DNA of 32,000 nt from an uncultured Candidatus Saccharibacteria bacterium (GCA_964543385.1 CAZIYE010000004.1:17233-49232), one strand, 5' to 3'. Shown: positions 131-31,576, counted from the first letter of the stretch. Made by a program: numbers and translations. Notes: generated by a model not told the origin, from the sequence alone.

Positions 131-1189
131 CTATTCCATATTTACAAACATAGCATCGCCATAAGAATAGAAACGATAATTATGCTTTATTGCCTCGTCA
201 TACGCGTGTAAAACATTTTTTCTGCCGGCAAGAGCCGAGACTAAAAACAAGAGGGAAGAAGCCGGAAGGTGAAAGTTTGTTATAAGGCTATCAACAAATT
301 TGAATTTATAACCAGGATAAATGTATATATCGGTCCAGCCACTCAGCGATGGTAATGGTCGAACATCATTAGACAGCGACTCGGTGAATATTGTTTCCAA
401 TACACGGGTAGTTGTTGTTCCAACAGCGATAATCCTATGTCCGTTTTTTTTCAGCTCGAGCAAGCTATTATAAGAATCCTGGGAAATCGAATAAAATTCC
501 TGGTGGATTTTATGATCCTCAACTTCTTTCGCCTCAACATGAGCAAAAGTCCCCAGACCGACATGTAATGTTAATTCTAAGGTTTTTACACCCTTGATTC
601 TTATTTGGTCCAAAAGACTTGCGCTGAAATGCAAACCTGCCGTTGGCGCAGCAATGCTTCCTCTCTTTTTTGCATAAATTGTTTGATATCTTTCTTTATC
701 TTTTTCATACAAAGTATGATTTATTTTTCTCTTTGCCTCTATATACGGTGGCAAAGGGATGAGACCAATTTTTTCTAGCTCAGAAAAGAATTCTTCTTCC
801 TTAAAATTAAAATCCAAAACGAAAGTTTTATCATTCCTAGAGATAACATTGGCTTTCAAATCCGAGTTCTCAAAGATAATACTTTGATTGATACTTAAAT
901 TCTTGCCGATAACTTCCCAATAATTACCATCAATTTGGTGATTCAATAAAATTTCGACCCTACCTCCAGTGCTCTCCTTTTTTCCTATCAACCTTGCTGG
1001 AAAGACTTTTGTATTATTGAATACAAGGACATCTTTATCTGACAGGAGTGAAAGAAGATCGGAGAATTTCCGATGACTAATATGGCCCATGCTATCTAGA
1101 ACTAGCAGTTTTGATTCATCACGTTTATCAGTTGGTTTCTCCGCAATTAATTCGCTTGGCAGATTGAAATTATAATCAGACACTTTCAT
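131..1189 (-). CDS. queA: S-adenosylmethionine:tRNA ribosyltransferase-isomerase (queuosine pathway)
   Basis: 352-aa ORF with a QueA-typical layout recognised by eye: N-terminal DYNFNLPSELIAEKP, PLPPYI, AAPTAGLHF, VGTTTTR, C-terminal YGDAMF. Its ATG (1189-1187) overlaps the upstream TGA (1188-1186) as ATGA. Confidence 0.95.
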   Translation of the reverse strand: MKVSDYNFNLPSELIAEKPTDKRDESKLLVLDSMGHISHRKFSDLLSLLSDKDVLVFNNTKVFPARLIGKKESTGGRVEILLNHQIDGNYWEVIGKNLSINQSIIFENSDLKANVISRNDKTFVLDFNFKEEEFFSELEKIGLIPLPPYIEAKRKINHTLYEKDKERYQTIYAKKRGSIAAPTAGLHFSASLLDQIRIKGVKTLELTLHVGLGTFAHVEAKEVEDHKIHQEFYSISQDSYNSLLELKKNGHRIIAVGTTTTRVLETIFTESLSNDVRPLPSLSGWTDIYIYPGYKFKFVDSLITNFHLPASSLLFLVSALAGRKNVLHAYDEAIKHNYRFYSYGDAMFVNME

Positions 1190-2034
1190 GGCGTTAGATC
1201 TATTTCCCTTCCTTCGGTTAATTCACCTTGACTATCTGATACTTTTTTATTCACTTTTGAATCATTCTTTGTATTAGAATCCGTAGCTACTAAAATCTTG
1301 TTATTTTGAGCAAGCTTTTTAATATTATCTTTCTCTGTCCTATCCTCCTGCGTTATTACCATCCCTCCGTATTTCACACGATCAATGAATCGTGATTCAC
1401 CGAGAACGTTTTTTGCCTGTCTTTCTAATTCTCCAAAAGGTAATTCAGCTTCACTATCTCTAGCTCTTTCTCCCAGACCAACATCTCTTCTGTTAGATCT
1501 TCTATTCGTCCTCTCAATATGTGCTTCATGGAGACTAATTATTTGTTTGGCGACTAAATAAGGATGTGGAATTGACTTGAAAACAAAATTCTCTCTTTCT
1601 CCGGCGGTTTGGATATGGACATCTCCAAAATGCAGTAATGTCTGCCAGATACCCTCAACTCGAGCATTTACATCCTGTACTTGGTGTAAATGCAATTCAG
1701 ATATTTGTCGTTTGAAATAACCTTCTTGACTGATATCGACAATTCTTTGATCAGTGACTATGTAAACATCAAGATAGTAGTCAACGAAGCCATAGAGCTG
1801 GGCAGCTAGTACAACTAAAACAAAAATAGCAAGAAAAATTACTAAGATTTGTCCGCCAACTGGCGTTATAAGTGTTGGGTTATTTACCCAGACAAAAAGA
1901 GCTATAAGCACAGGGATTACTGCAAGAAAATCCAGAAAGAAAAAGATCACATAGTTAAACCAGTGCTTTCTAATAAGAAGAAATATTCGCTCTTCTTGTG
2001 ATTGATTTGGAAATAATTTTTCTCTTACTGACAT
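1186..2034 (-). CDS. membrane protein with a bacterial PH (bPH_2, YdbS/YdbT-like) domain and a charged C-terminal tail
   Basis: 282-aa ORF. Two N-terminal hydrophobic helices are followed by a YIVTDQRIVDI...GDVHIQTAG...F segment typical of membrane-anchored bPH_2 domains. The Lys/Asp/Glu-rich tail is unassigned. Confidence 0.65.
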   Translation of the reverse strand: MSVREKLFPNQSQEERIFLLIRKHWFNYVIFFFLDFLAVIPVLIALFVWVNNPTLITPVGGQILVIFLAIFVLVVLAAQLYGFVDYYLDVYIVTDQRIVDISQEGYFKRQISELHLHQVQDVNARVEGIWQTLLHFGDVHIQTAGERENFVFKSIPHPYLVAKQIISLHEAHIERTNRRSNRRDVGLGERARDSEAELPFGELERQAKNVLGESRFIDRVKYGGMVITQEDRTEKDNIKKLAQNNKILVATDSNTKNDSKVNKKVSDSQGELTEGREIDLTP

Positions 2035-2825: not shown

Positions 2826-3872
2826 TTATATTAATTGGCACTGATCTACTGGCTTTTGTATTCTGAGGTGTTTATAAGCCAGAAGTGTGGCGATTCTACC
2901 ACGATTAGTACGATTAATAAACCCCAGCTGTAGAAGATATGGCTCTATAACGTCCTCTATTGTGTCTTTGTCTTCGGAAATTGCCGCGGAGATAGTCTCT
3001 AACCCAACTGGACCGCCACTAAATTTATTGATTATAGTATCCAGATAAAAACGATCATTTCTATCCAGACCTAATTCATCAATATCTAACTTATTGATTG
3101 CTTCAAAAGCTACAGCCTTATTCACAACACCATTATGCTTTACTTCTGCATAGTCTCTCACTCTCTTGAGAAGACGATTAGCTATACGTGGAGTCTTCCT
3201 TGATCTTTTGGCAATTTCTAGAATACCGCTATCATCTATCTTTATCCCAAGTATCTGTGCCGACCTTCTGATAATTTCTGAAAGTTCTTTATCTTCATAA
3301 AATTCAAGTCTATGTACAAAACCAAAGCGATCACGCAAAGGAGATGAAAGCGAACCAAACTTTGTAGTAGCACCGATTAAGGTAAACTTTGGAAGATTCA
3401 TTCTCATTGCTTTTGCAGAAGGCCCCTTACCTAATATTAGGTCAACGGCGTAATCCTCCATGGCAGAATACAAAATTTCCTCGACTGTGGTATTGAGACG
3501 ATGAATCTCATCGATGAAAAGAATATCGCTCTCAGATAAATTCGTCAGCAGAGACACCAGATCTCCTGATCTTTGGATGGCTGGACCTGACGTTATTCTA
3601 ATATTTACTCCCATCTCAGAGGCAATAATATTTGCAAGAGTAGTTTTGCCAAGCCCTGGAGGACCATAAAAAAGCATATGTTCAACTGGTTCGCTTCTTT
3701 TTCTGGCGGCTTCTATAAATATAACTAGATTTTCTTTGATTTGATTTTGTCCGACGTATTCTGCAATTTTTTTAGGCCGCAAAGAAAAATCGAGCACTTC
3801 ATCATCATTAGTAAAAGAAGTGGAGGTTAAATCAGACTCGAAATTTTCGCTATCACTTTTTTTCATATACAA
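2826..3872 (-). CDS. ruvB: Holliday junction branch-migration ATPase RuvB
   Basis: AAA+ Walker [12 protein letters not shown] and Walker B FIDEIHRL, with RuvB-type sensor and winged-helix C-terminus (GPVGLETI...[14 protein letters not shown]). Confidence 0.97.
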
Positions 3873-3941: not shown

Positions 3942-4526
3942 TTACTTCGCTGATAAGTTTTTTAAACACCACCGAACTCTTTCTTCGGTGGAGATTATAT
4001 CGGATGGGATTTTACTAACCAACCCCTGTATTTCTGATTTTTTATAGCCCAAAGATTGCATTGCATCCATTAAATCATCTGCTTCATCAATTTTCCCGAT
4101 GACGTTAATGCTTTTATCAGAAGATATTTTTGATTTAAGATCAAGGATTATTTTGGCTGCTACTTTCTTACCTATTCCAGAAATTGCAGTAAAGAAACTC
4201 ATGTCATCGCTGATTATTGCATGAAGAATTTTATCTGTCCCCGCATAGCTCATAATATTTAAACCAGCTTTTGGACCGACACCATTAACAGAAATCAATT
4301 TCTCAAATAACTCTAATTCTTGGTAGCTCAAAAAACCATAAAAATCATCGGCATCCTCCCTGATATGCTCATAGATATATAGCTCTACATCTTCTCGCGT
4401 ATCGACGATGTTATTCTTTATTTTGATTTGCGGATTGACAAAAACTTTATAACCGACTCCTCTAGTTTCCAGGATAATAAGACCCCATTTAAATAAAACT
4501 ACTCTACCTTTTAGATAAGAAATCAT
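3942..4526 (-). CDS. ruvA: Holliday junction DNA-binding protein RuvA
   Basis: 194 aa. N-terminal OB-like MISYLKGRV, two helix-hairpin-helix motifs (LISVNGVGPKAGLNI and ISGIGKKVAAKIILDL), and a C-terminal domain III. The ATG directly abuts the TAA of the upstream ATP-grasp gene (4527-4529). Confidence 0.93.
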   Translation of the reverse strand: MISYLKGRVVLFKWGLIILETRGVGYKVFVNPQIKIKNNIVDTREDVELYIYEHIREDADDFYGFLSYQELELFEKLISVNGVGPKAGLNIMSYAGTDKILHAIISDDMSFFTAISGIGKKVAAKIILDLKSKISSDKSINVIGKIDEADDLMDAMQSLGYKKSEIQGLVSKIPSDIISTEERVRWCLKNLSAK

Positions 4527-5531
4527 TTATTTGTCCTTCTTGGTTTCAGGAAAAGCAATATCTAGTATATCTCCTGCGACATTTCGAGACTCACCCTCGT
4601 AAGGGAAATGATGCATAAATATTCCAGGACTTGAGTTTATCTCCACAATAATGTGATTGTCGGGTGTTTGCTCTACTGTAATATCCCTTGAAAGAAAATC
4701 CATGCCGCCATAGGCAAGGCCGGGGATTGCCTTAATTACTTTTACTGCAATTTCGTGCACTGAAGGATGAACCTTATCGGTAAAATCGATGCTGTCACCC
4801 CCAGTTGAAAGATTGGAATTTTCACGCAGGAATACTTGTTCGCCAGCTTGCGGCTTATAATTGATGTCTCTGTTAGACTTTTTTAATGTTTCAATAACAA
4901 TGTCATCTATATCAATTTTTACGAGGCATTTTTTAAAATCCTTATATGAGTCATCACCTCTTCTGGGATCAGAATTTTTAATCTCCACTAATTCTTTTAT
5001 TGTGTGGATGCCATCGCCGATCACATTAGCAGGAACACGATTAGTAATTCCCAGTACTTTGTCCTGACTAGCAACTACTCGATACTCCGTACCGCCATCA
5101 AAATAGCGCTCGACAAGAATATTATTGAATTTAATTGATACTTTCTGCCAGTGTTTAATAAAATCATCCTCGTCGGCAATATTTGCAAAAACACAATTTC
5201 CATGACTTGAATTTGTCGGTTTAATAACAACCGGATATCCTATTTTCTTTGCAAAGGCCAGCGCTTCATCTAACTGCATTTTGGTAAATTTTTCGCCTTC
5301 GGCTATTGATAGGCCAGCCTCTTTTAGAACCTGCTTCGTCAAATTCTTATTGTTAACTAACTCATAAGCAACCGATGTTGTTTTGGAAATAAATTGGCAA
5401 CACAGGTATTCTTCATGACCTCCATAGCTTAGTTTGGCAACTTTTCCTGGGCATAAGTCATCTACCTTGACACCACGTTTATTTGCTTCATTAACAATGA
5501 TCTGAGTTGAGATTGTATAATTTTCTTTCAT
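4527..5531 (-). CDS. stand-alone ATP-grasp ligase, cyanophycin-synthetase G-domain-like / GshF C-terminal-like (paralog A)
   Basis: 334 aa. Motifs: GYPVVIKPTNSSHG, EYRVV, PANVIGDGIHTIKELVEIKNSDPRRG, FLRENSNLSTGGDSIDFTDKVHPS, IVEINSSPGIFMHHFP, AFPE. This set is what I know from the ATP-grasp domain of CphA and bifunctional GshF. No Mur-ligase-like domain is attached. Confidence 0.8.
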   Translation of the reverse strand: MKENYTISTQIIVNEANKRGVKVDDLCPGKVAKLSYGGHEEYLCCQFISKTTSVAYELVNNKNLTKQVLKEAGLSIAEGEKFTKMQLDEALAFAKKIGYPVVIKPTNSSHGNCVFANIADEDDFIKHWQKVSIKFNNILVERYFDGGTEYRVVASQDKVLGITNRVPANVIGDGIHTIKELVEIKNSDPRRGDDSYKDFKKCLVKIDIDDIVIETLKKSNRDINYKPQAGEQVFLRENSNLSTGGDSIDFTDKVHPSVHEIAVKVIKAIPGLAYGGMDFLSRDITVEQTPDNHIIVEINSSPGIFMHHFPYEGESRNVAGDILDIAFPETKKDK

Positions 5532-5538
5532 TCTTTAC

Positions 5539-6519
5539 CTATTTAATTGTTTCTGGAAAATTGACATCGATAATTGCTGACGCAATATCAACCGGTTTGC
5601 CAATCGTTGGCTGATGGTGCAAAGCAATTCCAGGAATAGAATTTACTTCGATCACAACATAATTATCTTTATTCTGAAGTTTGGTGATATCTTTTGTCAT
5701 AAAATCAACCCCGCCATATTGCAAACCTGGTATTGCCTCAATAGCTTTCCTGGATATCTCTAAAACTGAAGGGTGTGCAATTTCATTACAGTCAAGACTT
5801 TCACCCCCTGTAGCAATATTAGAGTTTTCACGTAAGAATATTTGTTCATCCTTTTTTGGGATATAGTCTAAATCGTGTCCTTCTTTCTTAATCGTTCCGC
5901 GCACAACATCATCAATTACAATTTGTGCTAGTGGTGTAAGACCGGGGCCTCGTCTAGGATCCTGATTTTTTATGCCGATAAGTTCGCGCAGATTGTGAGT
6001 ACCGTCACCAACTACATTAGCAGGAATTCGGTGTATGACAGATAGAGATTTATCTCTGGTAGCGAATACGCGGTATTCTTTGCCAATAAACATCTTTTCA
6101 ACAATAATTTCGCTATATTTTTGGCCAATTTTTTTCCAGGCAGATAAAAACTGCTCCTTGTCCGATATGTTTGGAAACACAAGATCACCTTCCATGCCGG
6201 TAGTTGGCTTTACCACAACTGGCCAACCATTTTTTTCCACGTATGACAAAGCTTCATAGATTTGATCATTTAAGAAATTCATGCCTTTAGGGACTTCAAC
6301 CCCTGCTTCCTCGAGCAACATTTTTGTAAAATTTTTGTTCAGGCAAAACTTCGAAGCAAGTGCAGTCGTTTTAGATGAAAGAGTTTCATTGAAATACTCT
6401 TTATGTCCTTGATACTCCAAAACAAAGTAGTCCCTATGGTAAAATCTGACACTTATTCCCCGCTTTATTGCTTCATCTGTGACATATTTGACTGCCAAAC
6501 GCATGACTTTGTGACTCAT
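5539..6519 (-). CDS. stand-alone ATP-grasp ligase, cyanophycin-synthetase G-domain-like (paralog B)
   Basis: 326 aa, alignable end to end with paralog A. Motifs: GWPVVVKPTTGMEG, EYRVF, PANVVGDGTHNLRELIGIKNQDPRRG, FLRENSNIATGGESLDCNEIAHPS, VIEVNSIPGIALHHQP, NFPE. Lies 7 nt upstream of paralog A. Confidence 0.8.
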   Translation of the reverse strand: MSHKVMRLAVKYVTDEAIKRGISVRFYHRDYFVLEYQGHKEYFNETLSSKTTALASKFCLNKNFTKMLLEEAGVEVPKGMNFLNDQIYEALSYVEKNGWPVVVKPTTGMEGDLVFPNISDKEQFLSAWKKIGQKYSEIIVEKMFIGKEYRVFATRDKSLSVIHRIPANVVGDGTHNLRELIGIKNQDPRRGPGLTPLAQIVIDDVVRGTIKKEGHDLDYIPKKDEQIFLRENSNIATGGESLDCNEIAHPSVLEISRKAIEAIPGLQYGGVDFMTKDITKLQNKDNYVVIEVNSIPGIALHHQPTIGKPVDIASAIIDVNFPETIK

Positions 6520-6607
6520 CAGTACTCCTTTTTGTTGTCTTATTTCTCTCTTATCAAGATAACGGTAATGACCGCTTAAATCAAGTGATTTATCTTATTG
6601 CTTAGGG

Positions 6608-6636
6608 TTGAAAAAGTTAGGAAAATATTGTATAGT
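6608..6636 (+). promoter_or_regulatory. sigma70-like promoter for the PGM1-like ligase gene
   Basis: TTGAAA (6608-6613), a 17-nt spacer, then TATAGT (6631-6636) preceded by TG (extended -10), in the divergent intergenic region. Confidence 0.4.
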
Positions 6637-6696
6637 TTTGGCTTACTCTATATCAAAAAGCTTGCCCTTAAGGGCCAAATAGTGGACAATACAATT

Positions 6697-8256
6697 ATGA
6701 AAACCGAAGAGCAGATAATCTTTTCGAATCTTCAAAAAAGATTGAAAAAAAATAAGAAGCTTTCTAACTACAATTATCGTGGCGAAAGAACTTTTGTAGT
6801 TGTCTCGGGCTTAAATTCTGACAAATTTAACCTTTCAAAAGTTAAGGGCTTAAGATTTTATGAAGAGAGAATGTTGTTTATCCTTTTTCTTCTCAAATAT
6901 AAGAATACGAAGATTGTATATGTAACTTCTGATAATTTTGACACCACTCTATTCGATTATTATCTAGGCTTGATATCAGGCAAGCCAAAAGAGATTGCCG
7001 ATATGAAATCAAGATTGACCCATATTCAGGTAAAAGACAGCCAGCACCTGAGTCTTACCGAAAAGCTATACAATTCTCATGCCGCTCTCAAAAGAATTGC
7101 TAAGGCTATTACAAATGAAAAGACCACCGTTTTACGTTGCTATAATCCAACTATTCTTGAAAGAAAATTAGCAGTAAGAATTGGTATACCCCTCTTCGGA
7201 TCTGCCGAGAAATTTGATTACGTTGGCAGTAAAAGTGGCGGACGCAAGGTATTTAAATTAGCCGACCTAAATGTCATCCCCGGAATTACTAGCTTGAAAA
7301 GTTTTACTGAACTTTATGGGGCAATCGCGAAATTAATGAGAGACTACCCAAAGTTCAAGAAATTGGTAATTAAACTTGAACAGGGTGCTTCTGGTAGGGG
7401 GAATTGTCTCTTTTCTGTAGAAGATTTTTTGAATGACAATGATATCGAGATTTCTATTAGAACAGATCTGGCCAAACTCACCTCTTTAATCAAAAAGAAT
7501 TTCCATAAATATTGCAGGTTAGAAGCGGATGACTTAGAGATAGAGAGATATATCAGGGAATTCAATAGGATTGGCGGCATAGTTGAGGGTTATGTCGATG
7601 GAAAAATAAAATATTCTCCTAGCGCACAGTTGTTTTTATCGACAGAAGGAAAAGTCTCTATTGCTTCTACCCATGAGCAAATTCTCGGTGGTTCTGACGG
7701 TCAAAAATATCTTGGCTGTACATTTCCGGCTTTGGACGTTCATCGCAAGCTAGTTATTCGAGAGGCCAAAAAAGTCGGTGACTGGATGATAAAGAAGGGT
7801 ATGGTTGGTCATTTCTCGATTGATTTTGTTACGGTTCAGTCAAATGAGTTAGAAATACCGAAGATATACCCAATTGAGATAAATTTACGTAAAGGCGGCA
7901 CAACTCATCCTTTTAGAATTGCTTACTATCTGACTAAATCAAAATATAATAAGCGGGACGGCATTTTATACTGTGGCAAAACTCCAATTTATTATATGGC
8001 CAGAGATATCGTAGAATCAGAGAAATACAAAGTTTTATCATCATCCGAGCTGATTAAGATGATTGATAAGAGCAAAATTAGTTTCAATAAAAATACCAAA
8101 AAAGGCGTTATGGTCTATATGCCAGGAATGATCTCGGAGTATGGAAGATTTGGCGCATTATCGGTTGGCCATACCAAAGAGGAAGCAGAAGAATACTTTA
8201 AAAAACTTATAAAAGCTATCAACCTACACTCTAATAGAAAAATAAATAAAATTTAG
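6697..8256 (+). CDS. PGM1-like peptide ligase (pre-ATP-grasp + ATP-grasp domains)
   Basis: Start taken at ATG 6697 (MKTEEQ); the ORF-track start at 6598 is TTG and lies inside the promoter region. The N-terminal half resembles the pre-ATP-grasp region of the pheganomycin ligase PGM1 family: FYEERMLFILFLLKYKNTKIVYVTS, SLTEKL, YNPTILERKLAVRIGIPLFGS, VGSKSGGRKVFK. The C-terminal half carries an ATP-grasp core (VIKLEQGASGRGN, HFSIDF, EINLRKGGTTHP). Confidence 0.7.
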   Translation: MKTEEQIIFSNLQKRLKKNKKLSNYNYRGERTFVVVSGLNSDKFNLSKVKGLRFYEERMLFILFLLKYKNTKIVYVTSDNFDTTLFDYYLGLISGKPKEIADMKSRLTHIQVKDSQHLSLTEKLYNSHAALKRIAKAITNEKTTVLRCYNPTILERKLAVRIGIPLFGSAEKFDYVGSKSGGRKVFKLADLNVIPGITSLKSFTELYGAIAKLMRDYPKFKKLVIKLEQGASGRGNCLFSVEDFLNDNDIEISIRTDLAKLTSLIKKNFHKYCRLEADDLEIERYIREFNRIGGIVEGYVDGKIKYSPSAQLFLSTEGKVSIASTHEQILGGSDGQKYLGCTFPALDVHRKLVIREAKKVGDWMIKKGMVGHFSIDFVTVQSNELEIPKIYPIEINLRKGGTTHPFRIAYYLTKSKYNKRDGILYCGKTPIYYMARDIVESEKYKVLSSSELIKMIDKSKISFNKNTKKGVMVYMPGMISEYGRFGALSVGHTKEEAEEYFKKLIKAINLHSNRKINKI

Positions 8257-8287
8257 TGACTTTTCGATAAGTGATAAGCTGCTAAGA

Positions 8288-9277
8288 CTAAGATCTCCCC
8301 TTTAAATACTCTGCGGCTTCTTCTGGCGGCATAGTATTGATGACAATATCGCTACTCAACTCAAAACCACCGTATCTAGAGACTCTTGGCACAATTTCAA
8401 TATGCCAATGGTACGAATCGGAGTTCTCGTGAATCGTTGGCAATGTATGGATGTAAAAGTTTAGAGGTGGGTTTTCTAGGGTTTTGTCGATCATTTGGAA
8501 AACAGTGGTCAAAGCATCTGCACAATCTTTCATATAAGTTTTTGAAGTATTCTCGAACTGACTTTCGTGTTTTTTGGGCATAACCCAGGTCTCAAAAGGA
8601 AATCTAGGTGCATAAAAATTGAAGGCGATGAAGTGCTCATTTTCATATACAACTCTGATTTTTTCTTTGATCTCATGATGAATAATATCGCAGTAAACAC
8701 AAGCCCCATTTATGCCATAGTAGCGGTCTGCGCCCTCTAACTCTCTGCCGACTTCATTTGTTACAATTCCTGAAGCAAATATCTGAGCATGCGGATGATC
8801 GATAGATGCTCCAGCTTCGGCCCCATGATTGTAGATAGGAACAATAGAGGCAACTTTCTCATGCTCTTTCATCCATAGATATCTTTCTCTTATAACCTCA
8901 AGGACTTCATCCATGAGAGATTTACTAAACTTCAATAATGGGGTTGTGTGATCTTTTATGATAATTACTTCGTGATCCCCCACGGAGGCACGTGCGCGAT
9001 AAAAACCCTCTTCAGGATAAAAACTTCTGATTGATTTTTTGGATTCATCTTCAACAAAAGCCGGAAAACGATTCTCAACTACATAAACATTCTCTGTTTC
9101 ATATTTCATGTGAGCTTTATTCTGTTTGTATCCTACAGAATCCACACAAAATGGACAGTTATCCTTATTAGAAACTTTCACACTTTTTGGAATAACGAAA
9201 TCTTTTGGACGCTTTGCTCTTTCTGGCGCTACGACTACCCAATCACCAGTTATGATATTTTGTCTTAGTTCTGGCAT
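8288..9277 (-). CDS. galT: GalT-family HIT nucleotidyltransferase (galactose-1-phosphate uridylyltransferase-like)
   Basis: N-terminal ELRQNIITGDWVVVAPERAKRP, a CPFC zinc motif and the HPHAQI active-site motif (HxHxQ). Start set at ATG 9277, preceded by GGAGGG; the ORF-track start at 9292 is upstream of this SD. The true sugar/nucleotide specificity cannot be read from the sequence. Confidence 0.8.
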   Translation of the reverse strand: MPELRQNIITGDWVVVAPERAKRPKDFVIPKSVKVSNKDNCPFCVDSVGYKQNKAHMKYETENVYVVENRFPAFVEDESKKSIRSFYPEEGFYRARASVGDHEVIIIKDHTTPLLKFSKSLMDEVLEVIRERYLWMKEHEKVASIVPIYNHGAEAGASIDHPHAQIFASGIVTNEVGRELEGADRYYGINGACVYCDIIHHEIKEKIRVVYENEHFIAFNFYAPRFPFETWVMPKKHESQFENTSKTYMKDCADALTTVFQMIDKTLENPPLNFYIHTLPTIHENSDSYHWHIEIVPRVSRYGGFELSSDIVINTMPPEEAAEYLKGRS

Positions 9278-9309
9278 CTTCCCTCCGATCAAATTTTCAA
9301 TTTTATTTT

Positions 9310-9813
9310 TTAAACTATCTTTTGATTTGTTTGGCCATGGCAGATTGCAATAGCCAATGCATCAGCAGCATCATCTGGCTTTGGACAATCTTTGAGTTTG
9401 CATGTAACCTTTACCATTTCTTGTATCTGATTTTTGTCTGCCCTGCCATAACCAGTTAAGGCCTGTTTTACCTGTAAAGGCGTATACTCGAAGACTGGCA
9501 GACTGAAATTTTTTGCGACAACGATTGCCACCCCTCTTGCCTCGGCAACCGAAATTATTGTTTTCTGGTTTTTAAAGAAAAATAGTTCTTCAATCGCAAA
9601 TTCATCTATCTGGTTTGTCCTAATTATATCAGATAAGGAATTGAAAATATGCAAAAGACGCTCGCTGCGCTCGCTATTTGCCGGAGTTCTTACACAACCA
9701 TATTTTATAGGGATTATTTCAGATCCCCTTTTCTCTATTATCCCCCAGCCCATTATACCAGTCCCTGGATCAATACCAAGAATTCTAATCGAGTTATTTT
9801 TTAATTTTTCCAT
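9310..9813 (-). CDS. ruvC: crossover junction endodeoxyribonuclease RuvC
   Basis: ILGIDPGTGIMGWG (catalytic Asp), AIEELFF (Glu) and DAADALAIAICH (C-terminal Asp pair): the canonical RuvC layout. 167 aa. Confidence 0.95.
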   Translation of the reverse strand: MEKLKNNSIRILGIDPGTGIMGWGIIEKRGSEIIPIKYGCVRTPANSERSERLLHIFNSLSDIIRTNQIDEFAIEELFFFKNQKTIISVAEARGVAIVVAKNFSLPVFEYTPLQVKQALTGYGRADKNQIQEMVKVTCKLKDCPKPDDAADALAIAICHGQTNQKIV

Positions 9814-10544
9814 TATAGATTAGCGTTTGAGTACACATTATTTACATCATCGAGATCATCGAGCGCTTCAAGTAAGATTTCGATTGATTCCATCTTGTCA
9901 GCCGGCACATCATTGTAAACTTTTGCCATTTGTATAGCCTCAGCACTGGTGACAACCACTCCGGCTGCCTCAAGATTAGATTTAACTGAATTTATATCAG
10001 GGAATTCGCAAGTAACTACGACAAGACCATCATCAACAGAAAAATCTGTAGCGCCAGAATCAATGATTGCCATTTGCATTTCTTCGCCCTTGAGAGGATT
10101 ATTTGTCTCATCAATAATGATTTGACCAACCTTATTAAAAAGATAATTAACACTGCCAGCGGAGGCCAGAGTACCACCCTTTTTATTCAGAACAGCCCTG
10201 ATTTCGCCTAGTGCTCGGTTCTTTGAGTCAGTTAGACATTCAATCATAATAGCGATACCTGCTGGTCCGTAGACTTCATAGATAATCTCTTCGAGTGCCG
10301 CACCACCATCAAGTCCCCCAAGACCTTTTTTGATTGCTCTATCGATATTGTCTTTTGGCATACTTACGGATTTTGCATTGTCGATGGCAATTCGAAGTCC
10401 TGGATTCATTGCTACGTCGCCGCTTTTACCATCACGAGCCGCGATAGTAATAAGTTTGGCTGCCTTGGTAAAAACCTTGGCGCGCTTAGAATCGATAATT
10501 GCTTTTTTATGTTTAGTTGTTGCCCATTTACTATGTCCCGACAT
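9813..10544 (-). CDS. yebC: YebC/PmpR family DNA-binding regulator
   Basis: Starts MSGHSKWATTKHKKA, the family signature. 243 aa. Lies immediately upstream of ruvC (1-nt overlap), a common arrangement. Confidence 0.95.
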   Translation of the reverse strand: MSGHSKWATTKHKKAIIDSKRAKVFTKAAKLITIAARDGKSGDVAMNPGLRIAIDNAKSVSMPKDNIDRAIKKGLGGLDGGAALEEIIYEVYGPAGIAIMIECLTDSKNRALGEIRAVLNKKGGTLASAGSVNYLFNKVGQIIIDETNNPLKGEEMQMAIIDSGATDFSVDDGLVVVTCEFPDINSVKSNLEAAGVVVTSAEAIQMAKVYNDVPADKMESIEILLEALDDLDDVNNVYSNANL

Positions 10545-24909: not shown

Positions 24910-25527
24910 CTAAAATCTGCCGAATTCTACTGCTAAAGATTCTAAATTCAGTATAGCATAAAAGCCACGATCAGCCGGAGCGAGCTTGATAATCTTTGTT
25001 TCGCCTAAATATGTGCATCCCCACTGGCTATGAACATGCCCACAGATATGGATTATTGGGGAATCAGAAAATTTTTTATTTGAGGTAGGGGATTGGCAAT
25101 CATTTCTTTGATAATTATGAACACCTGGGGGCGGCACATGGGAGATAAAGATACTGCCAGCAATACTTTTCCGATCAATCATGCTCTCGCCAGCATATTG
25201 CCCAGACCACGAGGCAGGGGACCCCCCTACTCCGGTAAAATTACGGCCTCCAAAATTTACAACTTTGCCCTCAAGTGTTTTGAATACATTATCAAGTTTA
25301 TAATAGCCACGACCGAAATCATTATTACCAGGCACCCAAAGAAAATTAAGCTTAGTATTTTTTACAACTTCAATAAATTTTTGCACAAAACCGACTGGCT
25401 CCCCCATATTTATTAGATCGCCAGCAAAGATAATTAGCCCAATTTCTTTATTATTGTTTAGATATTTGCCAATGTTATCGAGCTCACGGTAATTTGCATG
25501 AAGATCAGAGAATAGAAAAGCCTTCAT
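24910..25527 (-). CDS. calcineurin-like metallophosphoesterase
   Basis: SDLHAN, FAGDL, PGNNDF, SHVPP, CGHVH: the five conserved metallophosphoesterase blocks. 205 aa. Confidence 0.8.
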   Translation of the reverse strand: MKAFLFSDLHANYRELDNIGKYLNNNKEIGLIIFAGDLINMGEPVGFVQKFIEVVKNTKLNFLWVPGNNDFGRGYYKLDNVFKTLEGKVVNFGGRNFTGVGGSPASWSGQYAGESMIDRKSIAGSIFISHVPPPGVHNYQRNDCQSPTSNKKFSDSPIIHICGHVHSQWGCTYLGETKIIKLAPADRGFYAILNLESLAVEFGRF

Positions 25528-25528
25528 A

Positions 25529-26119
25529 TTAACTCTCGATTTCGATGATCATATAACCGACAAGAGTTCTTACATCTCTTACTTTTAATTTATCCAGATC
25601 AGAGAAAGAATTACTATAAAATAGACTATTCATCTTCGGTGATAAAGTATCGGCGATCTTTGGGGGGGCTACAACTCCAGCTGCCTTTATTTCTTTGAGG
25701 TTAAATAGAATTTTTCCGTTATTACTGATTGGGACAAACAGCACATCAACTGGGACACCCCAAAAACCGTTAGCCGTTTTCCCAGAAATAATAATTCCCT
25801 CTGATTTTATTTTAAGAGTTGGGCTTTTCAACGGAAAATCCGAACGAGATATGCCAATTGTCTTCGATAATTCTTCTTCTGATATCTTTATCTCAATTGT
25901 TTTTAATTCTCCAGACTTTGCTTTTTCGCCATTAAATAGATCGGCGAAAGATACCCCCTTAGGTATGTTTTTGATATAAAAGCCATTAAGGGGTGACCAG
26001 CTACTAAACCTAAGGTAAAATAACATGCCGACAATTAGAACAAAAATAGAACCTAAGAATATAAATACAGCTGTTAGGGTTATGCCCTCCTTGTGAGGCG
26101 CTATGTCATTATGTTTCAT
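25529..26119 (-). CDS. membrane-anchored hypothetical protein
   Basis: 196 aa with a single N-terminal TM helix (LTAVFIFLGSIFVLIVGMLFYL) and a soluble beta-rich remainder. Packed 1 nt from the phosphoesterase gene. No family recognised. Confidence 0.5.
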   Translation of the reverse strand: MKHNDIAPHKEGITLTAVFIFLGSIFVLIVGMLFYLRFSSWSPLNGFYIKNIPKGVSFADLFNGEKAKSGELKTIEIKISEEELSKTIGISRSDFPLKSPTLKIKSEGIIISGKTANGFWGVPVDVLFVPISNNGKILFNLKEIKAAGVVAPPKIADTLSPKMNSLFYSNSFSDLDKLKVRDVRTLVGYMIIEIES

Positions 26120-26133
26120 CTTCCCTCCGTTAT

Positions 26134-27180
26134 TTATTCATTCGCCTCTTCTAATATTCTTTGATATATAGGGTCTTTCCCGCATCCACCGGCTATAACT
26201 TCGCATAAGCCTAGGTGAAAATCATGATTACCTTCGATTAGAATAGGACCTTCCTTAGTAATTGCGATATCCCAGCCAGCTAATTTTACTGGAAGGATCT
26301 CAACAGTATCCCTAACTAGTTGTTTTACCTCTTCATAAAGAGGAATTTGGAAACCGTCAAAAACAAATTTTGTCTCAGGATGCTCTGTAAATATTTTACC
26401 GCCGGAATCTAATAGCTGAAGGGCTAACTTATTTAATTTTCCAGTTTCCAAGTCAAATCCAACCGAACCACCTCCGGCACAACCGTTGTCAACGCAACTC
26501 TTTCCACTACCAAAGCGAAAATATCCACCGATAAATTTTACTTCACTCTGATCATAATAAGAAACCAGCCTGACAGTGTTCACACTACCCGGAAAGACCT
26601 TTGCCAAGTCTGGATGCTGTACAATACATTTTTGAAAAACAAAGTTTGCTTTGCCAAGAATATTGAAGAAGTTAGAATCGCCTGTAAGATCTGACAGATT
26701 AATACGGTGGTGATTTCCTCCGCCGGACCCGTGTATCGGCTTAATAAATACCTCCGAAATGCCATCTTTAAAAATATTTTTCTTAAAGAAAGCAACTAAA
26801 TCATCTTGATTTCTAATCTTTGCTACTGTATTTCCAGAATAAAAAATATTTTGCATATTGAACCCAAGCATTTTTGGCGTTGCTACTTTCTTGCCATCAA
26901 AAAAATAGCTAAATAGTAGTTTATTCTCCAATATTTCTTCGACGCAAGGATTATGTATTTTTCTTGAACGATGAATCTTCGAAACGTTTTTATATGTCGA
27001 GATATAATCATTAATATTTTTGACGCCCTGTCGGTATAAAAAACGAGTAAAATAATATTTTGGCAGCTCACCATTTTTAAAGCCTAGATAAATAGCTTCC
27101 AAAATTATTCGGCAGATACTTTTACGCTCTGAATCACTTAAAACGCTTCTGATAATATTTGATTGACTATGATTGCTCAT
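26134..27180 (-). CDS. ATP-grasp ligase of the sugar-transfer-associated (ATPgrasp_ST) / alpha-L-glutamate-ligase-related type
   Basis: VFIKPIHGSGGGNHHRI, RLVSYY, GGYFRFG and GWDIAITKEGPILIEGN resemble this ATP-grasp subfamily. Start ambiguous: ATG 27180 (1 nt after the murJ stop) is chosen; ATG 27207 (ORF track) would overlap murJ by 26 nt. Confidence 0.65.
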   Translation of the reverse strand: MSNHSQSNIIRSVLSDSERKSICRIILEAIYLGFKNGELPKYYFTRFLYRQGVKNINDYISTYKNVSKIHRSRKIHNPCVEEILENKLLFSYFFDGKKVATPKMLGFNMQNIFYSGNTVAKIRNQDDLVAFFKKNIFKDGISEVFIKPIHGSGGGNHHRINLSDLTGDSNFFNILGKANFVFQKCIVQHPDLAKVFPGSVNTVRLVSYYDQSEVKFIGGYFRFGSGKSCVDNGCAGGGSVGFDLETGKLNKLALQLLDSGGKIFTEHPETKFVFDGFQIPLYEEVKQLVRDTVEILPVKLAGWDIAITKEGPILIEGNHDFHLGLCEVIAGGCGKDPIYQRILEEANE

Positions 27181-27181
27181 C

Positions 27182-28765
27182 TTATTCTTTATTGTTAGAC
27201 TCACCATTAATTTTTCTTGTGACTGCCCATTTCATTTCTTCTTGATCAAAGAAATAGCTAAGGGTAAAGAAGACAATTGCGCCGGAGACACAAGCAATAA
27301 TAGTTTGTGTTAAAACGCCAAAAAATCTGGTCATATCAACATAGAGAGATGCAATATGCATAGATGACCAAACTGCAACGCCCATAGCCATTGAGATTAT
27401 AAATGTAACCGCATAAGACCGAAGAAGATTCTTGTCCAAAACACCAGGGTATTTTTTATTGAGGAAATAGCTCAAGGTAAAAGCATTAAAATAACTACCT
27501 ATAGTGAATGCAAGTGCAAGGCCAGCAACTGAATAATATTTTGCCAAAGGAAAAGCAATTACGATGCTGACAACTACCGTTGCAATAGAACAGTACATTG
27601 GCGTTCTAGTATTTTTCATTGCATAGAAAGCCCTGCTAAAAAGGGGTACAAGGCCCTGAGCCAAAATGGACAATGAAAAGAATCCAAGCGCCAGAGCTGT
27701 CATCCTAGTATCACTCCAATCAAATTTACCTGACCCATAAAGAAGCCTGACAATTTGAGCCCTTAGAAGAATAAAGACAAAAGTTGATGGAATCAAAAAG
27801 TAGCCTATTGCTCTCAAGGCTCTGTTTAGATAAAAAGCAAATTCTTTTTCTTTTTTCTGAGCGATTTTGATGGCTAGCGTTGGGAATATCGCCGAAGAAA
27901 AGGCACTGCCCAAGACCATTACTGGGACAGATTGGATATTGTTGGCCAAAGTAAAAGCTGAAATGGAGCCGAAAGCCAGTGCTGAAGCAATGGCTGTATA
28001 GACTACTAGCATTACCTGGCCTGCTCCCATACTTATTGACCGCGGAACCATCAGTTTGATTATCTTTATAATATTCTCGTCTTTAAAAGAAACTATTGGT
28101 CTATATCTATAACCTAATTTTATAATTGACGGAATAATAATTAACAGATGAAGAAATGAACCAGCGACAACGGCGTACACGACCCCTGTTATCCCATATT
28201 GGGGGGCTAAAAAGACAGCGCCACAAATAATTGCTATATTGTAGAAAATCGGAGAAAGCGAATATATGAAAAAACGCTTGAAACAATTTAACATACCGCC
28301 CAAAACATAGGAGACCGAGAAGAATATCGGTGTTAACATCAACAGCCTAGACAAACGTACAGCCTCTTGCATACGATATTGATCAAATTTTGGCACTACT
28401 ACAGCCATCAAATAAGGCATAATAGCAATCAAGATGACGGCCGAAATACTGACGAAAATAAGTCCTGCATTAATCAACATATTGGCTACTTTAAAACCAT
28501 CTTCTTCTTTCTTGTGAGCGATAAACTCTGAAAAAACCGGAATAAACGCGGAAACGATGGCACCGAGAATCAAAAGATTAAAAATAAGATCAGGAATACG
28601 AAAAGCAGCATAGTAGATATCAAGATTGTAGAGATCAATATTTTTTGTCAGGAAACGATCACGAAGAAGCCCTAGGACATTACTAATAGTCAAAGTAACT
28701 ATCAAGATAATGCTGGCGCCACGGACAGAATTATCCTTATTAAAAAGGTTTAAAATCCTTTTCAT
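27182..28765 (-). CDS. murJ: lipid II flippase MurJ (MviN family)
   Basis: 527-aa polytopic membrane protein. N-terminal pattern ...ISNVLGLLRDRFLTKN... and overall MOP-superfamily topology. ATGA overlap with the ftsH stop. Confidence 0.88.
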   Translation of the reverse strand: MKRILNLFNKDNSVRGASIILIVTLTISNVLGLLRDRFLTKNIDLYNLDIYYAAFRIPDLIFNLLILGAIVSAFIPVFSEFIAHKKEEDGFKVANMLINAGLIFVSISAVILIAIMPYLMAVVVPKFDQYRMQEAVRLSRLLMLTPIFFSVSYVLGGMLNCFKRFFIYSLSPIFYNIAIICGAVFLAPQYGITGVVYAVVAGSFLHLLIIIPSIIKLGYRYRPIVSFKDENIIKIIKLMVPRSISMGAGQVMLVVYTAIASALAFGSISAFTLANNIQSVPVMVLGSAFSSAIFPTLAIKIAQKKEKEFAFYLNRALRAIGYFLIPSTFVFILLRAQIVRLLYGSGKFDWSDTRMTALALGFFSLSILAQGLVPLFSRAFYAMKNTRTPMYCSIATVVVSIVIAFPLAKYYSVAGLALAFTIGSYFNAFTLSYFLNKKYPGVLDKNLLRSYAVTFIISMAMGVAVWSSMHIASLYVDMTRFFGVLTQTIIACVSGAIVFFTLSYFFDQEEMKWAVTRKINGESNNKE

Positions 28766-30573: not shown

Positions 30574-30583
30574 GATAAATCCT

Positions 30584-31576
30584 TTATGAAATATTAATGT
30601 TGGATATAATAATTTTACCATCAAGGAGTTCAATTATCAACGAATGGGGAAGGAGCTTAAACTTTTTCCCTATGCCCTTTTTTAGCATCAATGCAGCTTC
30701 GTCTAAATGCTTGATAGTGATATTGTCAAGAGAGTACAACTGTTCGAGACCAAGACGCAATATCATAGCCTGGATGGAGGGGTGGAGGCTAAGCCATTTC
30801 TTATAATCAAAACAGATTTTATCACTCTTCGACTCTACAACAATTTTGTACATCTCTTGTTTTGCAATTTGTTCAATAAAATCATAATCACAGGAGGCAT
30901 TCTTTGATATATTTACCAGAGCAGAGGTAATACTGGGATTTAATTTTGCAAGATATGGGATAAGATTGGCACGAATTTCATTTCTAAAATAGTCCTGCGA
31001 AAGATTGGTCTTATCGATAACAAAAGGTATGCCTTCTTTTTCGAGAAAATCTTCCACCTCTTTTCGACAAATATCCAAAAGGGGACGAACAAAATTTTTC
31101 CTTTTGTAGGGGATCGATTTAAGTCCTCTGATTCCGGTACCACGGATAAATCTCATCATCACTGTTTCAGCCTGATCATTTTGATTGTGTGCAATAGCGA
31201 TGAGATCTCCTCTCCCCTCTTTTAGAATTTTTTCAAAAAAGTCATATCGGGCATTCCTGGCACTATTTTCCCCGATTAATTTTATTTTTTTATCAGCGCT
31301 ACCGACGACACAATCAATTCCAAGATCATGGCACTTTTCCTGAACAAATTTTTCATCAGCGTCGCTCTCCGCTCCCCTGAGTCGATGATTAAAATGGCAA
31401 GCCGAAACTTGTATGGAAAGTTTATCTCTCAAAGCTAAAAGTACAAAAAGTAAAGCGATGGAATCTGGTCCACCACTCAAGGCAACGACTACTCTATCGC
31501 CTATCTTAATCAGATCATGTTTGCAAATAGTCTGATAAACTTTGCCATAAATAGATTTTTGGGAAAATTGGTTCAT
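30584..31576 (-). CDS. tilS: tRNA(Ile)-lysidine synthase
   Basis: PP-loop VALSGGPDS near the N-terminus, NH..D.AET, and a short substrate-binding C-terminal domain. 330 aa. Classic tilS-ftsH adjacency. Confidence 0.92.
   Translation of the reverse strand: MNQFSQKSIYGKVYQTICKHDLIKIGDRVVVALSGGPDSIALLFVLLALRDKLSIQVSACHFNHRLRGAESDADEKFVQEKCHDLGIDCVVGSADKKIKLIGENSARNARYDFFEKILKEGRGDLIAIAHNQNDQAETVMMRFIRGTGIRGLKSIPYKRKNFVRPLLDICRKEVEDFLEKEGIPFVIDKTNLSQDYFRNEIRANLIPYLAKLNPSITSALVNISKNASCDYDFIEQIAKQEMYKIVVESKSDKICFDYKKWLSLHPSIQAMILRLGLEQLYSLDNITIKHLDEAALMLKKGIGKKFKLLPHSLIIELLDGKIIISNINIS

Follow-up and report, generated by a model that had tools for sequence, protein, structure and literature searches.

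The C-terminal ATP-grasp domain of GshF (GshAB), a glutathione synthetase, lengthens an N-blocked dipeptide at its C-terminus by a single residue, and the reaction of Ngg is likewise of the C-terminal extension type. The G domain of cyanophycin synthetase CphA1 adds Asp to the C-terminal carboxylate of the polymer, Arg458 holding the incoming Asp by its alpha-carboxylate (PMC9427784), and in CphA2 a G domain is by itself able to polymerise dipeptides (PMC10273328). BesA (L-propargylglycine--L-glutamate ligase, 8YI6) and PGM1 (pheganomycin peptide ligase, 3WVQ) are carboxylate-amine ligases of the ATP-grasp type that begin with a pre-ATP-grasp region; PGM1 ligates a ribosomal peptide (PMC8939145). 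The TupA-type (teichuronopeptide) locus of Halalkalibacterium halodurans carries tandem CphA-G-like ATP-grasp genes, evidence that stand-alone proteins of this clade function in cassettes of several ligases. TupA itself is associated with teichuronopeptide, a wall polymer of glucuronate and poly-glutamate.

The window analysed here, 32,000 nucleotides in length, comes from a tiny-genome bacterium of the Patescibacteria (CPR), which keeps three intact and conserved amide-bond-forming enzymes between the DNA-repair genes ruvC and ruvA (Table 1). Along the minus strand yebC, ruvC and the GalT-like gene are followed by ATP-grasp B, ATP-grasp A, ruvA, ruvB, queH and queA; a PGM1/BesA-like gene lies between the GalT-like gene and B on the plus strand, convergent with the former (31 nt between stops). 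Genes B and A are 7 nt apart, and the ATG of ruvA follows directly upon the TAA stop of A. In gene identities, gene order and this last junction the first-pass annotation, made from the sequence alone, was accurate. The scores behind the family assignments given below greatly exceed what chance would produce.

Table 1. Features of the window, with positions counted from its first nucleotide
Feature	Position	Strand	Remarks
queA	131-1189	minus-strand series	
queH	2239-2841	minus-strand series	
ruvB	2826-3872	minus-strand series	
ruvA	3942-4526	-	TIGR00084, 165 bits; downstream border of variable slot
ATP-grasp A	4527-5531	-	334 aa; stop codon abuts ruvA start
ATP-grasp B	5539-6519	-	326 aa; paralogue of A; heads the B-A-ruvA-ruvB... 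unit
Divergent intergenic region, B / PGM1-like	6520-6696		177 nt; presumed promoter region for both genes
PGM1/BesA-type ATP-grasp carboxylate-amine ligase (putative)	6697-8256	+	519 aa from ATG 6697
GalT-family (HIT branch III) nucleotidyltransferase, At5g18200 type (putative)	8288-9277	-	329 aa; last gene of yebC-ruvC unit
ruvC	9310-9813	-	PF02075, 2.5e-51; NF000711, 223 bits; upstream border of variable slot
yebC	9813-10544	minus-strand series	
Fourth ATP-grasp (ATPgrasp_ST)	26134-27207	-	PF14397, 2.6e-41; outside block

The GalT-like ORF extends over 8288-9292 (-) and the maximal PGM1-like ORF over 6598-8256 (+), starting at TTG 6598; the public gene calls begin at ATG 9277 and ATG 6697, respectively. 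Promoter-like hexamers occur in both directions between B and the PGM1-like gene (+ 6608-6636, - 6656-6627), though these are matches to the consensus alone and no more numerous than expected by chance in a region of this kind. None of the four genes is disrupted, and purifying selection on each of them is strong. Compared with the nearest MAG (L007) they show 86-88% identity and a dN of 0.06-0.08 (0.063 for A) with synonymous sites saturated, the same as is seen for ruvA, ruvC and yebC. No plausible small or precursor-peptide ORF was found in the block, whose intergenic spaces measure 0, 7, 31 and 177 nt, nor was a transporter, both of which the first-pass annotation had also failed to recognise; it likewise holds no peptidase, acceptor protein, exporter, other membrane protein or Rfam element.

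Judged from their sequences, ATP-grasp A and B belong, as stand-alone proteins, to the CphA-G / GshF-C / Ngg clade. Both align with the ATP-grasp portion of TIGR02068 (cyanophycin synthetase), with 309 bits (A, E 7e-92) and 267 bits (B, E 3e-79), against an equivalog cut-off of 850 bits; the matches begin only at model position 156-163, that of A covering 156-476. The best PDB matches of A are to CphA1 [7lgn, 7e-53] and GshAB [3ln7, 2e-49]. With the G domain of CphA1 (7WAC, 7LG5, 7LGN) A and B share the fold with Gcore, Glid and the G-omega "large loop" motif (NSNLSTGGDS), and all the residues defined in TeCphA1 as binding ATP, Mg or carboxylate, namely K220, K261, E300, R309 and R323 (which bind carboxylate), R390, N394 and the D/E/N Mg ligands. 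A also retains H267, which is Glu in B; R458 is replaced in both, by Phe (A) and by Ala (B). The resemblance to GshF includes, in the A family, the "STGGDSID" loop and the C-terminal motif "MH.FPY.G..R"; in this motif the two proteins are nearer GshF than CphA1. They differ from GshF in having His or Glu in the P-loop where it has Tyr, in being two paralogues instead of one domain, and in lacking the fused gamma-glutamylcysteine ligase domain; their scores of 255 and 215 bits compare with a GshF cut-off of 425 and cover model positions 429-756 only.

The N and M domains of CphA, the first of which anchors the polymer while the second adds Arg, are missing as well. A search with the CphA N-domain HMM gave nothing in the window and, among 29 further Patescibacterial loci, nothing in 28, and in place of a Mur-ligase-like M domain the two proteins (326-334 aa) simply stop at the end of the G domain, with no Mur-ligase gene in the block. 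Since A and B lack these domains and Arg458, they are neither cyanophycin synthetase, the name given to B in the JGI annotation, nor GshF. Strictly speaking, what the trio makes would be neither cyanophycin nor glutathione. One might still propose a split synthetase of a cyanophycin-like storage polymer, A and B acting as iterative polymerases that provide an auxotrophic symbiont with a poly-amino-acid reserve of nitrogen or amino acids. The CphA1 G domains as best family and PDB matches, the His267, Arg309, Arg323 and Asn394 kept in A, the JGI name of B, the precedent of the CphA2 G domain (PMC10273328) and a stand-alone CphA N-domain gene (PF18921) some 9 kb away in one relative (L001) are in its favour, but we regard it as improbable in view of the missing domains, the replacement of Arg458 in both proteins and of His267 in B, and scores so far under the equivalog cut-off; nor was a cyanophycinase gene seen in the window.

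The tree places the ligases in a Patescibacterial clade of their own, separate from cyanobacterial CphA and from GshF. The CphA-G-like genes of the Bacillaceae, which in contrast to A and B are fused to acylphosphatase domains and accompanied by a TupA-like ATP-grasp gene, CapA and an Asp/Glu racemase, branch off as a clade of their own (98% bootstrap). Among close relatives B is an orthologue group apart from A (100% bootstrap), and it is only among these that the orthology of A and B is well supported. TeCphA1 positions 267 and 458 vary among A, B and their relatives and the copy number of the ligases ranges from 1 to 3, which would fit each ligase adding a different residue. The sequence does not reveal the substrate of the ligases.

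On the full-length fold of its predicted structure, the third ligase is a PGM1/BesA-type ATP-grasp enzyme, below equivalog level to BesA. The AlphaFold model (pLDDT 91.7) finds its best fold match in BesA (TM 0.77/0.86), followed by PGM1 3wvq/3wvr (3wvr_B, 0.65/0.77), the pre-ATP-grasp region included; the PDB sequence match to BesA [3e-27, 8yi6] is nearly full length. Identity is 25% to BesA and 16% to PGM1. The match to PF24923 [ATP-grasp_IQCH] (2e-25) reaches 90 bits against a cut-off of 27, whereas that to the BesA model NF042917 (5e-33) reaches 114 bits against 750. None of the three ligases attains any equivalog cut-off, and the earlier impression that this is not a pathway which can be named was correct. 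The nearest relatives outside the CPR are uncharacterised Bacteroidota singletons, homologues outside the Patescibacteria having 36-38% identity and no common context, and none of the Bes or pheganomycin partners (halogenase, PLP enzyme, hydroxylase, PKS, precursor peptide) lies nearby.

A RiPP-type pathway, in which the PGM1-like enzyme would join a non-proteinogenic acid to a ribosomal peptide as in pheganomycin, or alternatively a role in anti-phage defence, seems to us highly improbable. The reaction of PGM1 (PMC8939145) and the fact that CPR bacteria do harbour graspetide clusters speak for the former, but the intergenic spaces hold no plausible precursor and the ligases are not of the graspetide type. 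A PADLOC search gave no significant matches, and the block is chromosomal and vertically inherited, with the same composition as its flanks, which argues against both proposals.

The sequence of the GalT-like protein suggests a putative NDP-hexose / hexose-1-phosphate nucleotidyltransferase that most resembles the At5g18200 "ADP-glucose phosphorylase" type. The protein passes the cut-off of TIGR00209 (123 bits against 102) and possesses the zinc motif CPFC (CxxC), the nucleophile motif HPHAQ (H-x-H-x-Q, in DHPHAQ) and two HIT-like halves. At5g18200 (1Z84), the ADP-glucose phosphorylase of McCoy et al. 2006, is matched end to end at 2e-49, with about 37% identity as estimated from the printed alignment; it is nearer than the Leloir enzyme, represented by E. 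coli GalT at 3e-25, and neither galK nor galE is present in the window. More than 120 Patescibacterial clusters contain this protein at 62-88% identity, far above the 43-50% found for A. Among relatives its gene is a constant neighbour of ruvC, and it ends the yebC-ruvC transcription unit. It looks like a widely kept housekeeping neighbour, separate from the ligase pathway.

The content of the ruvC-ruvA interval varies among Patescibacteria. In six relatives (L094, L097, L098, L099, L100 and L101) a GalT-like gene of 68-73% identity stands beside ruvC without any ATP-grasp gene, and is followed, in a pairing which sets it apart from At5g18200 and GalT, by APH-type kinases, GT4/GT2, PMM and HAD/S6PP-like phosphatases. 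The trio is therefore a separable module. The ligases in turn occur without the GalT-like gene in L010, whose locus has in its place genes for a ManC-type NTP-transferase, a PMM, an epimerase and a ROK kinase. The PGM1-like gene with B and A, or with A only, has the same divergent arrangement in L001, L003, L007, L086, L087 and L010, and the same start of the block is seen in L092, whose contig ends within the PGM1-like gene. For at least 17 of 30 PGM1-like clusters (at least 50% identity) the longest contig is of the same size as that of an A-family cluster, an indirect sign of a shared contig. Synteny is in general very stable in this lineage, other conserved orders being comEC-MBL-yebC-ruvC and ruvA-ruvB-queH-bPH-queA, so that conserved order alone is weak evidence for the trio forming one pathway.

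The first-pass annotation had regarded the nucleotidyltransferase as one unit with the ligases, and had taken the junction with ruvA as a sign that the ligase pair is tied to the recombination/queuosine operon and is no loose island. The first of these views fails on the separability just described and on the different transcription unit of the GalT-like gene. Nor is the coupling of A to ruvA conserved, as a GT4, PMM or uncharacterised gene separates the two in L003, L086 and L087; the junction in this genome is positional, and nothing links the ligases to the recombination/queuosine genes. It had also been considered that the enzymes might fall in clades of known function and lack synteny in relatives. 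For the ligases this is not the case, since they form their own Patescibacterial clade and are syntenic down to about 50% identity.

Our preferred explanation, which we put forward tentatively, is that the lineage-specific slot between ruvC and ruvA holds two separable modules, the GalT-family enzyme and an ATP-grasp trio of stepwise peptide ligases. The former would serve sugar activation and glycoside or glycan synthesis. The latter consists of the divergent PGM1/BesA-type ligase together with the paralogues B and A, which head a unit running on into ruvA-ruvB-queH-queA. Most likely the three enzymes assemble a small non-ribosomal peptide or a short poly-amino acid through stepwise acyl-phosphate ligation. 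The data show that the genes are intact, to which families they belong, that catalytic residues are retained, that synteny is kept and that the modules can be separated, whereas we infer which substrates are used, in what sequence and to what end product, as follows. Each ligase would phosphorylate a carboxylate with ATP and couple the acyl-phosphate to an amine. The PGM1-like enzyme would form the first, N-blocking amide, which may, as with BesA, be a gamma-glutamyl bond. A and B would then each add one amino acid to the free C-terminal alpha-carboxylate, a step assigned to them because it is the reaction common to the characterised members of their clade. The product may be a cytoplasmic tri- or tetrapeptide, or a short poly-amino acid if the steps repeat.

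One coupled glyco-peptide pathway might also be imagined, the GalT-like enzyme (with GT4 and PMM where these occur) supplying an activated sugar or glycoside to which the ligases add amino acids, or the reverse; its product would be akin to an acidic wall polymer of the teichuronopeptide type or to a glycoside-amino-acid conjugate of the mycothiol/bacillithiol kind. Every flavour-1 locus has sugar-nucleotide genes next to the ligases, and so does L010, though there the enzymes are different, non-homologous ones (ManC, epimerase, ROK). An MshA-like GT4 gene (TIGR03449, 313 bits) follows directly upon A in L086, a diverged second GalT-family gene follows two A-like ligases in an Rlo-type cassette of L014, and in H. 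halodurans the CphA-G-like ligases keep company with the TupA-like ATP-grasp, CapA and the racemase. We nevertheless consider this pathway unlikely. All presence/absence combinations of sugar genes and trio occur, the window contains no glycosyltransferase in or near the block, the GalT-like gene is convergent with the PGM1-like gene and belongs to another transcription unit, and an exporter or membrane protein is wanting.

Unlike the block studied here, which has neither partner, other Patescibacteria combine A-like ligases at the same post-ruvC site with a RloB-like 7TM inactive transglutaminase and a retropepsin-like peptidase (L005, L008, L009, L011-L015, L020 and L088), recalling RloABC/RimBK of Pseudomonas (PMC12239564). 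These cassettes also carry a RloC-like ATP-grasp fused to a RloA/RimB-like retropepsin and often RimK; the Pseudomonas rlo operon as described has no CphA-G-like ligase (PMC12239564). Such neighbours bring to mind C-terminal tailing of proteins like that by RimK or tubulin-tyrosine-ligase, in which the ligases would add residues to a ribosomal or other protein. C-terminal carboxylates are the targets of the clade, RimK genes are found together with A-like ligases in L010, L005 and L088, retropepsin domains occur at the same site, and in L009 a MATCAP-like carboxypeptidase gene follows three A-like ligases. However, RimK, a peptidase and a candidate target are all absent from the block in the window, and we know of no characterised member of the CphA/GshF/Ngg clade that modifies proteins; tailing is accordingly a doubtful explanation next to the stepwise synthesis of a small peptide.

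A gene for a class A PBP comes after the Rlo-type cassettes of L005 and L088, and Pseudomonas Rlo mutants have envelope and morphology defects (PMC12239564). Together with the overlap of the fourth ATP-grasp gene of the window with murJ, this might suggest cell-wall precursor ligases which, like the enterococcal ATP-grasp D-aspartate ligase, provide the stem peptide of peptidoglycan with amino acids of the side chain or cross-bridge. We think this very unlikely, for mur, fem and PBP genes are absent in and next to the block, and the murJ-linked enzyme is of a different family and at a different locus. The first-pass count of four ATP-grasp ligases in 32 kb was right as to number, but the fourth, for which no PDB relative was found, does not belong with the trio. 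It is part of an ftsH-murJ-ATPgrasp_ST operon, where it overlaps the stop of murJ, whose product matches TIGR01695 with 288 bits, by 26 nt.

In the order of genes previously read from the sequence, two paralogous stand-alone ATP-grasp ligases (A and B), a third ligase of the PGM1/BesA type (PGM1-like) and a GalT-family nucleotidyltransferase gene (GalT-like) lie between ruvC and ruvA, and this order was borne out by the ORF coordinates and junctions. The window, which has a G+C content of approximately 37%, otherwise carries genes typical of Patescibacteria/CPR, including comEC, a short dnaJ, queA/queH and murJ. Beyond A the minus strand continues with ruvA, ruvB, queH, a bPH-domain gene and queA. 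The ATG of ruvA directly abuts the TAA stop codon of A, B and A are separated by 7 nt, and 31 nt lie between the stop codons of the convergent GalT-like and PGM1-like genes. The 177-nt spacer between B and the divergent PGM1-like gene contains promoter-like hexamers in both directions, these being consensus matches only; scans for promoters and terminators gave no excess over shuffled expectation. Based upon gene orientations and junctions the region comprises three transcription units, namely yebC-ruvC-GalT-like, the PGM1-like gene alone, and B-A-ruvA-ruvB onward.

Coordinates of the ruvC–ruvA block and of other features of the window
Feature	Position	Strand	Remarks
bPH_2 (bacterial PH-domain) protein	1186-2034	-	between queH and queA
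ruvA	3942-4526	-	
ATP-grasp A	4527-5531	-	
ATP-grasp B	5539-6519	-	
PGM1/BesA-like ATP-grasp	6598-8256	+	public call from ATG 6697, 519 aa; convergent to GalT-like
GalT-family gene	8288-9292	-	public gene call from ATG 9277, 329 aa
ruvC	9310-9813	-	
yebC	9813-10544	-	
ftsH to metallophosphoesterase run	24910-30633	-	tight, same-strand
ATPgrasp_ST ligase	26134-27207	-	26-nt overlap with murJ stop

Where the PGM1-like gene starts is ambiguous: its longest ORF opens with a TTG (6598; 552 aa), while the ATG start is that of the NCBI/Logan call and of the majority of homologs; the N-terminal extension is kept in one Logan call (542 aa) and in that of locus L007 (543 aa). L007, from a MAG labeled Candidatus Saccharibacteria, is the closest public genome fragment, with an identical block and protein identities of 84-88%. 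Between the window and L007 all four genes show a dN of 0.06-0.08 with saturated synonymous sites, indistinguishable from yebC, ruvC and ruvA; selection on the amide ligases of this lineage is thus as strong as on its DNA-repair genes. A mobile island was rejected, since the composition of the block matches its flanks and the block is vertically conserved. As the first-pass annotation had noted, the block holds no precursor-peptide ORF, and PADLOC gave no meaningful match; both absences speak against the block serving in RiPP production or in defense, which we disfavor. An Rfam scan at a permissive threshold returned chance-level matches only.

Related loci were fetched via A and via the GalT-like protein and annotated by tblastn and Pfam. 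The ruvC–ruvA interval is a variable slot. In loci of the first type (the window, L001, L003, L007, L086, L087 and L092) it holds the GalT-like gene, the PGM1-like gene and B and/or A, and ahead of ruvA some of these loci have in addition a GATase, one or two GT4 genes (of which one is MshA-like, with 313 bits), PMM or an unknown gene. L010 belongs here only in part: it has PGM1-like, RimK, B and A, together with a ManC-type nucleotidyltransferase, PMM, an epimerase and a ROK kinase, the GalT-like gene being absent. In six further relatives (L094, L097-L101), some of which are labeled Berkelbacteria, ruvC is followed by a GalT-like gene whose product is 68-73% identical to that of the window, and then, up to ruvA, by APH-type kinases, MshA/SPS-like GT4, GT2, PMM and HAD/S6PP-like phosphatases, with zero ATP-grasp genes in the locus. 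In layout these six match a two-step pathway to a glycoside (compatible-solute-type) or a glycan, with a sugar-1-kinase/uridylyltransferase pair feeding it. The ligases and the nucleotidyltransferase had been regarded as a single unit, which the comparison does not support: the GalT-like gene occurs without ATP-grasp genes in these six loci, and the trio of ligases without the GalT-like gene in L010. The GalT-like gene is a constant neighbor of ruvC, associated with sugar activation and glycoside/glycan genes, and the three ligases form a module separable from it. Nor could we sustain the proposed link of the ligases, through ruvA, to recombination and queuosine; the A-ruvA junction exists only where nothing intervenes (window, L001 and L007) and says nothing on either process.

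In loci of the second type (L005, L008, L009, L011-L015, L020 and L088) ruvC is followed directly by an RloB-like 7TM inactive transglutaminase carrying PKD domains, and then by an RloC-like ATP-grasp to which an RloA/RimB-like retropepsin is fused. These genes are often accompanied by RimK, between one and three A-like ligases come next, and L005 and L088 additionally possess a PBP. In a study of the Pseudomonas Rlo system (PMC12239564) 96% of RloB matches were found in Proteobacteria, and the Patescibacterial cassettes therefore look like an unrecognized distant branch. Partner genes in other cassettes suggest that the ligases might tail the C-termini of proteins, or ligate peptidoglycan side chains, but the partners on which either suggestion draws are absent from the block of the window. 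In L009 (13164-18030) three tandem A-like ligases precede a MATCAP-like (PF08014) metallocarboxypeptidase, a hexapeptide-repeat acyltransferase and two MFS transporters, which hints that the peptide product is trimmed and exported in that genome. Literature searches (Patescibacteria/CPR/Saccharibacteria together with cyanophycin or ATP-grasp) produced no description of the cassette or of a post-ruvC ATP-grasp site; work on CPR graspetides deals with a different ATP-grasp family.

The GalT-like protein, in which a CxxC zinc motif and an HPHAQ nucleophile motif are present, aligns end-to-end with Arabidopsis At5g18200 [2e-49], described as an ADP-glucose phosphorylase (McCoy et al. 2006), and is nearer to it than to E. 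coli GalT [3e-25]. Its TIGR00209 score exceeds the cut-off, so that under the NCBI rule the protein would be named galactose-1-phosphate uridylyltransferase, the label which pipelines give to these genes. With 62-88% identity across more than 120 clusters it is far more conserved than A (43-50%). This one of the four genes probably encodes an ordinary sugar enzyme; plain galactose salvage as an account of the entire block was rejected. A coupled pathway, in which sugar and peptide are joined, is possible: sugar-nucleotide genes lie alongside the ligases in every locus of the first type (though the enzymes differ in L010), and in L014 a diverged GalT-family gene follows the A-like ligases. A further parallel is found in Halalkalibacterium halodurans DSM 497 (L041, 23-10975), where four CphA-G-like genes are fused to a C-terminal acylphosphatase domain and occur with a TupA-like ATP-grasp, CapA (PGA_cap) and an Asp/Glu racemase. 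Similar arrays of four to five CphA-G-like ATP-grasp genes are present in other alkaliphilic/halophilic Bacillaceae (L025, L029, L039 and L072); that of L041 looks like an acidic wall-polymer (teichuronopeptide-type) locus.

The best solved relatives of A and B are CphA1 [7e-53], GshAB [2e-49] and CphA2 [about 1e-30], and 774 relatives of A were returned at E ≤ 1e-10. Against TIGR02068 (cyanophycin synthetase; cut-off 850) A and B score 309 and 267 bits, through the ATP-grasp (G) part only. With the C-terminal glutathione-synthetase domain of GshF they score 255 and 215 bits against a cut-off of 425, and an identity as bifunctional GshF was rejected accordingly. Both also match the ligase part of N-acetylglutaminylglutamine synthetase (Ngg). 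The profile searches and tree suggested in the first-pass annotation set the ligases apart from the known enzymes: none of the three reaches an equivalog cut-off, and by neighbor-joining the Patescibacterial genes form a loose group of their own, separate from cyanobacterial CphA and Pasteurellaceae GshF, within which the orthologous groups of A and B are solid only among close relatives. When residues were mapped onto the experimentally defined positions of Trichodesmium CphA1 (PMC9427784), Lys220, Lys261, Glu300, Arg309, Arg323, Arg390, Asn394 and the three Mg ligands proved to be kept in A and B, from which both should be active ligases. His267 is present in A and replaced by Glu in B. Arg458, which in CphA1 holds the alpha-carboxylate of the incoming aspartate (PMC9427784), is replaced by Phe in A and by Ala in B. 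At the Gcore-Gcore interface of CphA1, Glu215' of the partner also contacts the substrate. Unlike CphA, neither protein has the N or M domain, and A-family proteins carry a C-terminal motif (SPxIxMHHFPYxG) that is GshF-like rather than CphA-like. On these domain and residue tests an identity as true cyanophycin synthetase was rejected, and the name, which pipelines apply to such genes, is unjustified for the stand-alone A/B family. A recent Saccharimonadia preprint reports, from genome annotation, 'cyanophycin synthetase' genes in some MAGs, which may be of this family. Cyanophycin synthesis as the function of the block is likewise unlikely, cyanophycinase being missing as well, and a stand-alone N-domain gene was found only in L001. 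There, in a genome that carries the ligase block too, an 84-aa gene (548-802, plus strand) lying between dnaK and grpE matches PF18921, the N domain of cyanophycin synthetase, and resembles the N domains of cyanobacterial CphA. Neither tblastn nor a purpose-built HMM found such a gene in the window or in any other locus searched, and we therefore rejected it as part of the system.

BesA aligns with the PGM1-like ligase over nearly its full length [3e-27]. The AlphaFold model (pLDDT 91.7) is closest in fold to BesA (TM 0.77/0.86), with PGM1 next. The 4,177 relatives returned at E ≤ 1e-5 include 30 clusters of homologs with ≥50% identity, Patescibacterial without exception; in at least 17 of the 30 the longest contig equals in size that of an A-family cluster. 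Distant homologs (36-38%; Bacteroidota and others), examined on three long non-CPR contigs (Chitinophagaceae and others), are singletons whose neighbors are neither conserved nor shared; hence they offer no functional lead.

The ligase module plausibly carries out stepwise non-ribosomal peptide assembly. To our knowledge, the characterized CphA-G/GshF-C/Ngg members all take an N-blocked amino acid or peptide, activate its C-terminal alpha-carboxylate and extend it by one amino acid. For GshF and Ngg the reactions are well established, and that of CphA is described in PMC9427784. BesA forms a gamma-glutamyl amide, yielding the dipeptide gamma-L-glutamyl-L-propargylglycine, and PGM1 couples a carboxylic acid to a peptide N-terminus (PMC8939145). 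By analogy with these reactions the PGM1-like enzyme would first make the N-blocking bond, after which B and A would each add one residue. The product would be a peptide of three or four residues or, should the steps repeat, a short poly-amino acid. The variable specificity positions, and a ligase copy number of one to three across loci, fit enzymes which each add a different residue. More speculatively, and we think it rather improbable in its full form, the interchangeable post-ruvC ligase cassettes may be an NRPS-independent assembly line of Patescibacteria, here with a PGM1/BesA-type starter and two extenders producing a novel gamma-glutamyl-type tri-/tetrapeptide or short poly-amino acid, maybe joined to the product of the neighboring NDP-sugar genes, which could serve an auxotrophic episymbiont as compatible solute, redox buffer or amino-acid store.

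Each of the four proteins falls within a known superfamily, and the cassette is an uncharacterized multi-ATP-grasp peptide-ligase cassette rather than a categorically new kind of system. The biosynthetic capacity of Patescibacteria is minimal, yet this lineage retains three to four ATP-dependent amide ligases, making the cassette a promising biochemical lead in a phylum that is little understood. The identity of its product would reveal a metabolite or polymer relevant to the episymbiotic lifestyle (storage compound, osmolyte, thiol or envelope component) and would give a function to two large orphan families, the stand-alone CphA-G-like and the PGM1-related ligases.

A fourth ATP-grasp gene, ATPgrasp_ST, is found elsewhere in the window in the run ftsH, murJ, ATPgrasp_ST, an unknown 196-aa gene and a metallophosphoesterase. 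Its product has no solved relative; the coupling of an ATP-grasp to the lipid II flippase gene suggests that it modifies a cell-wall precursor. Finally, the bPH_2 gene occupies the same position in every relative examined (L001, L003, L086, L087, L097 and L099).
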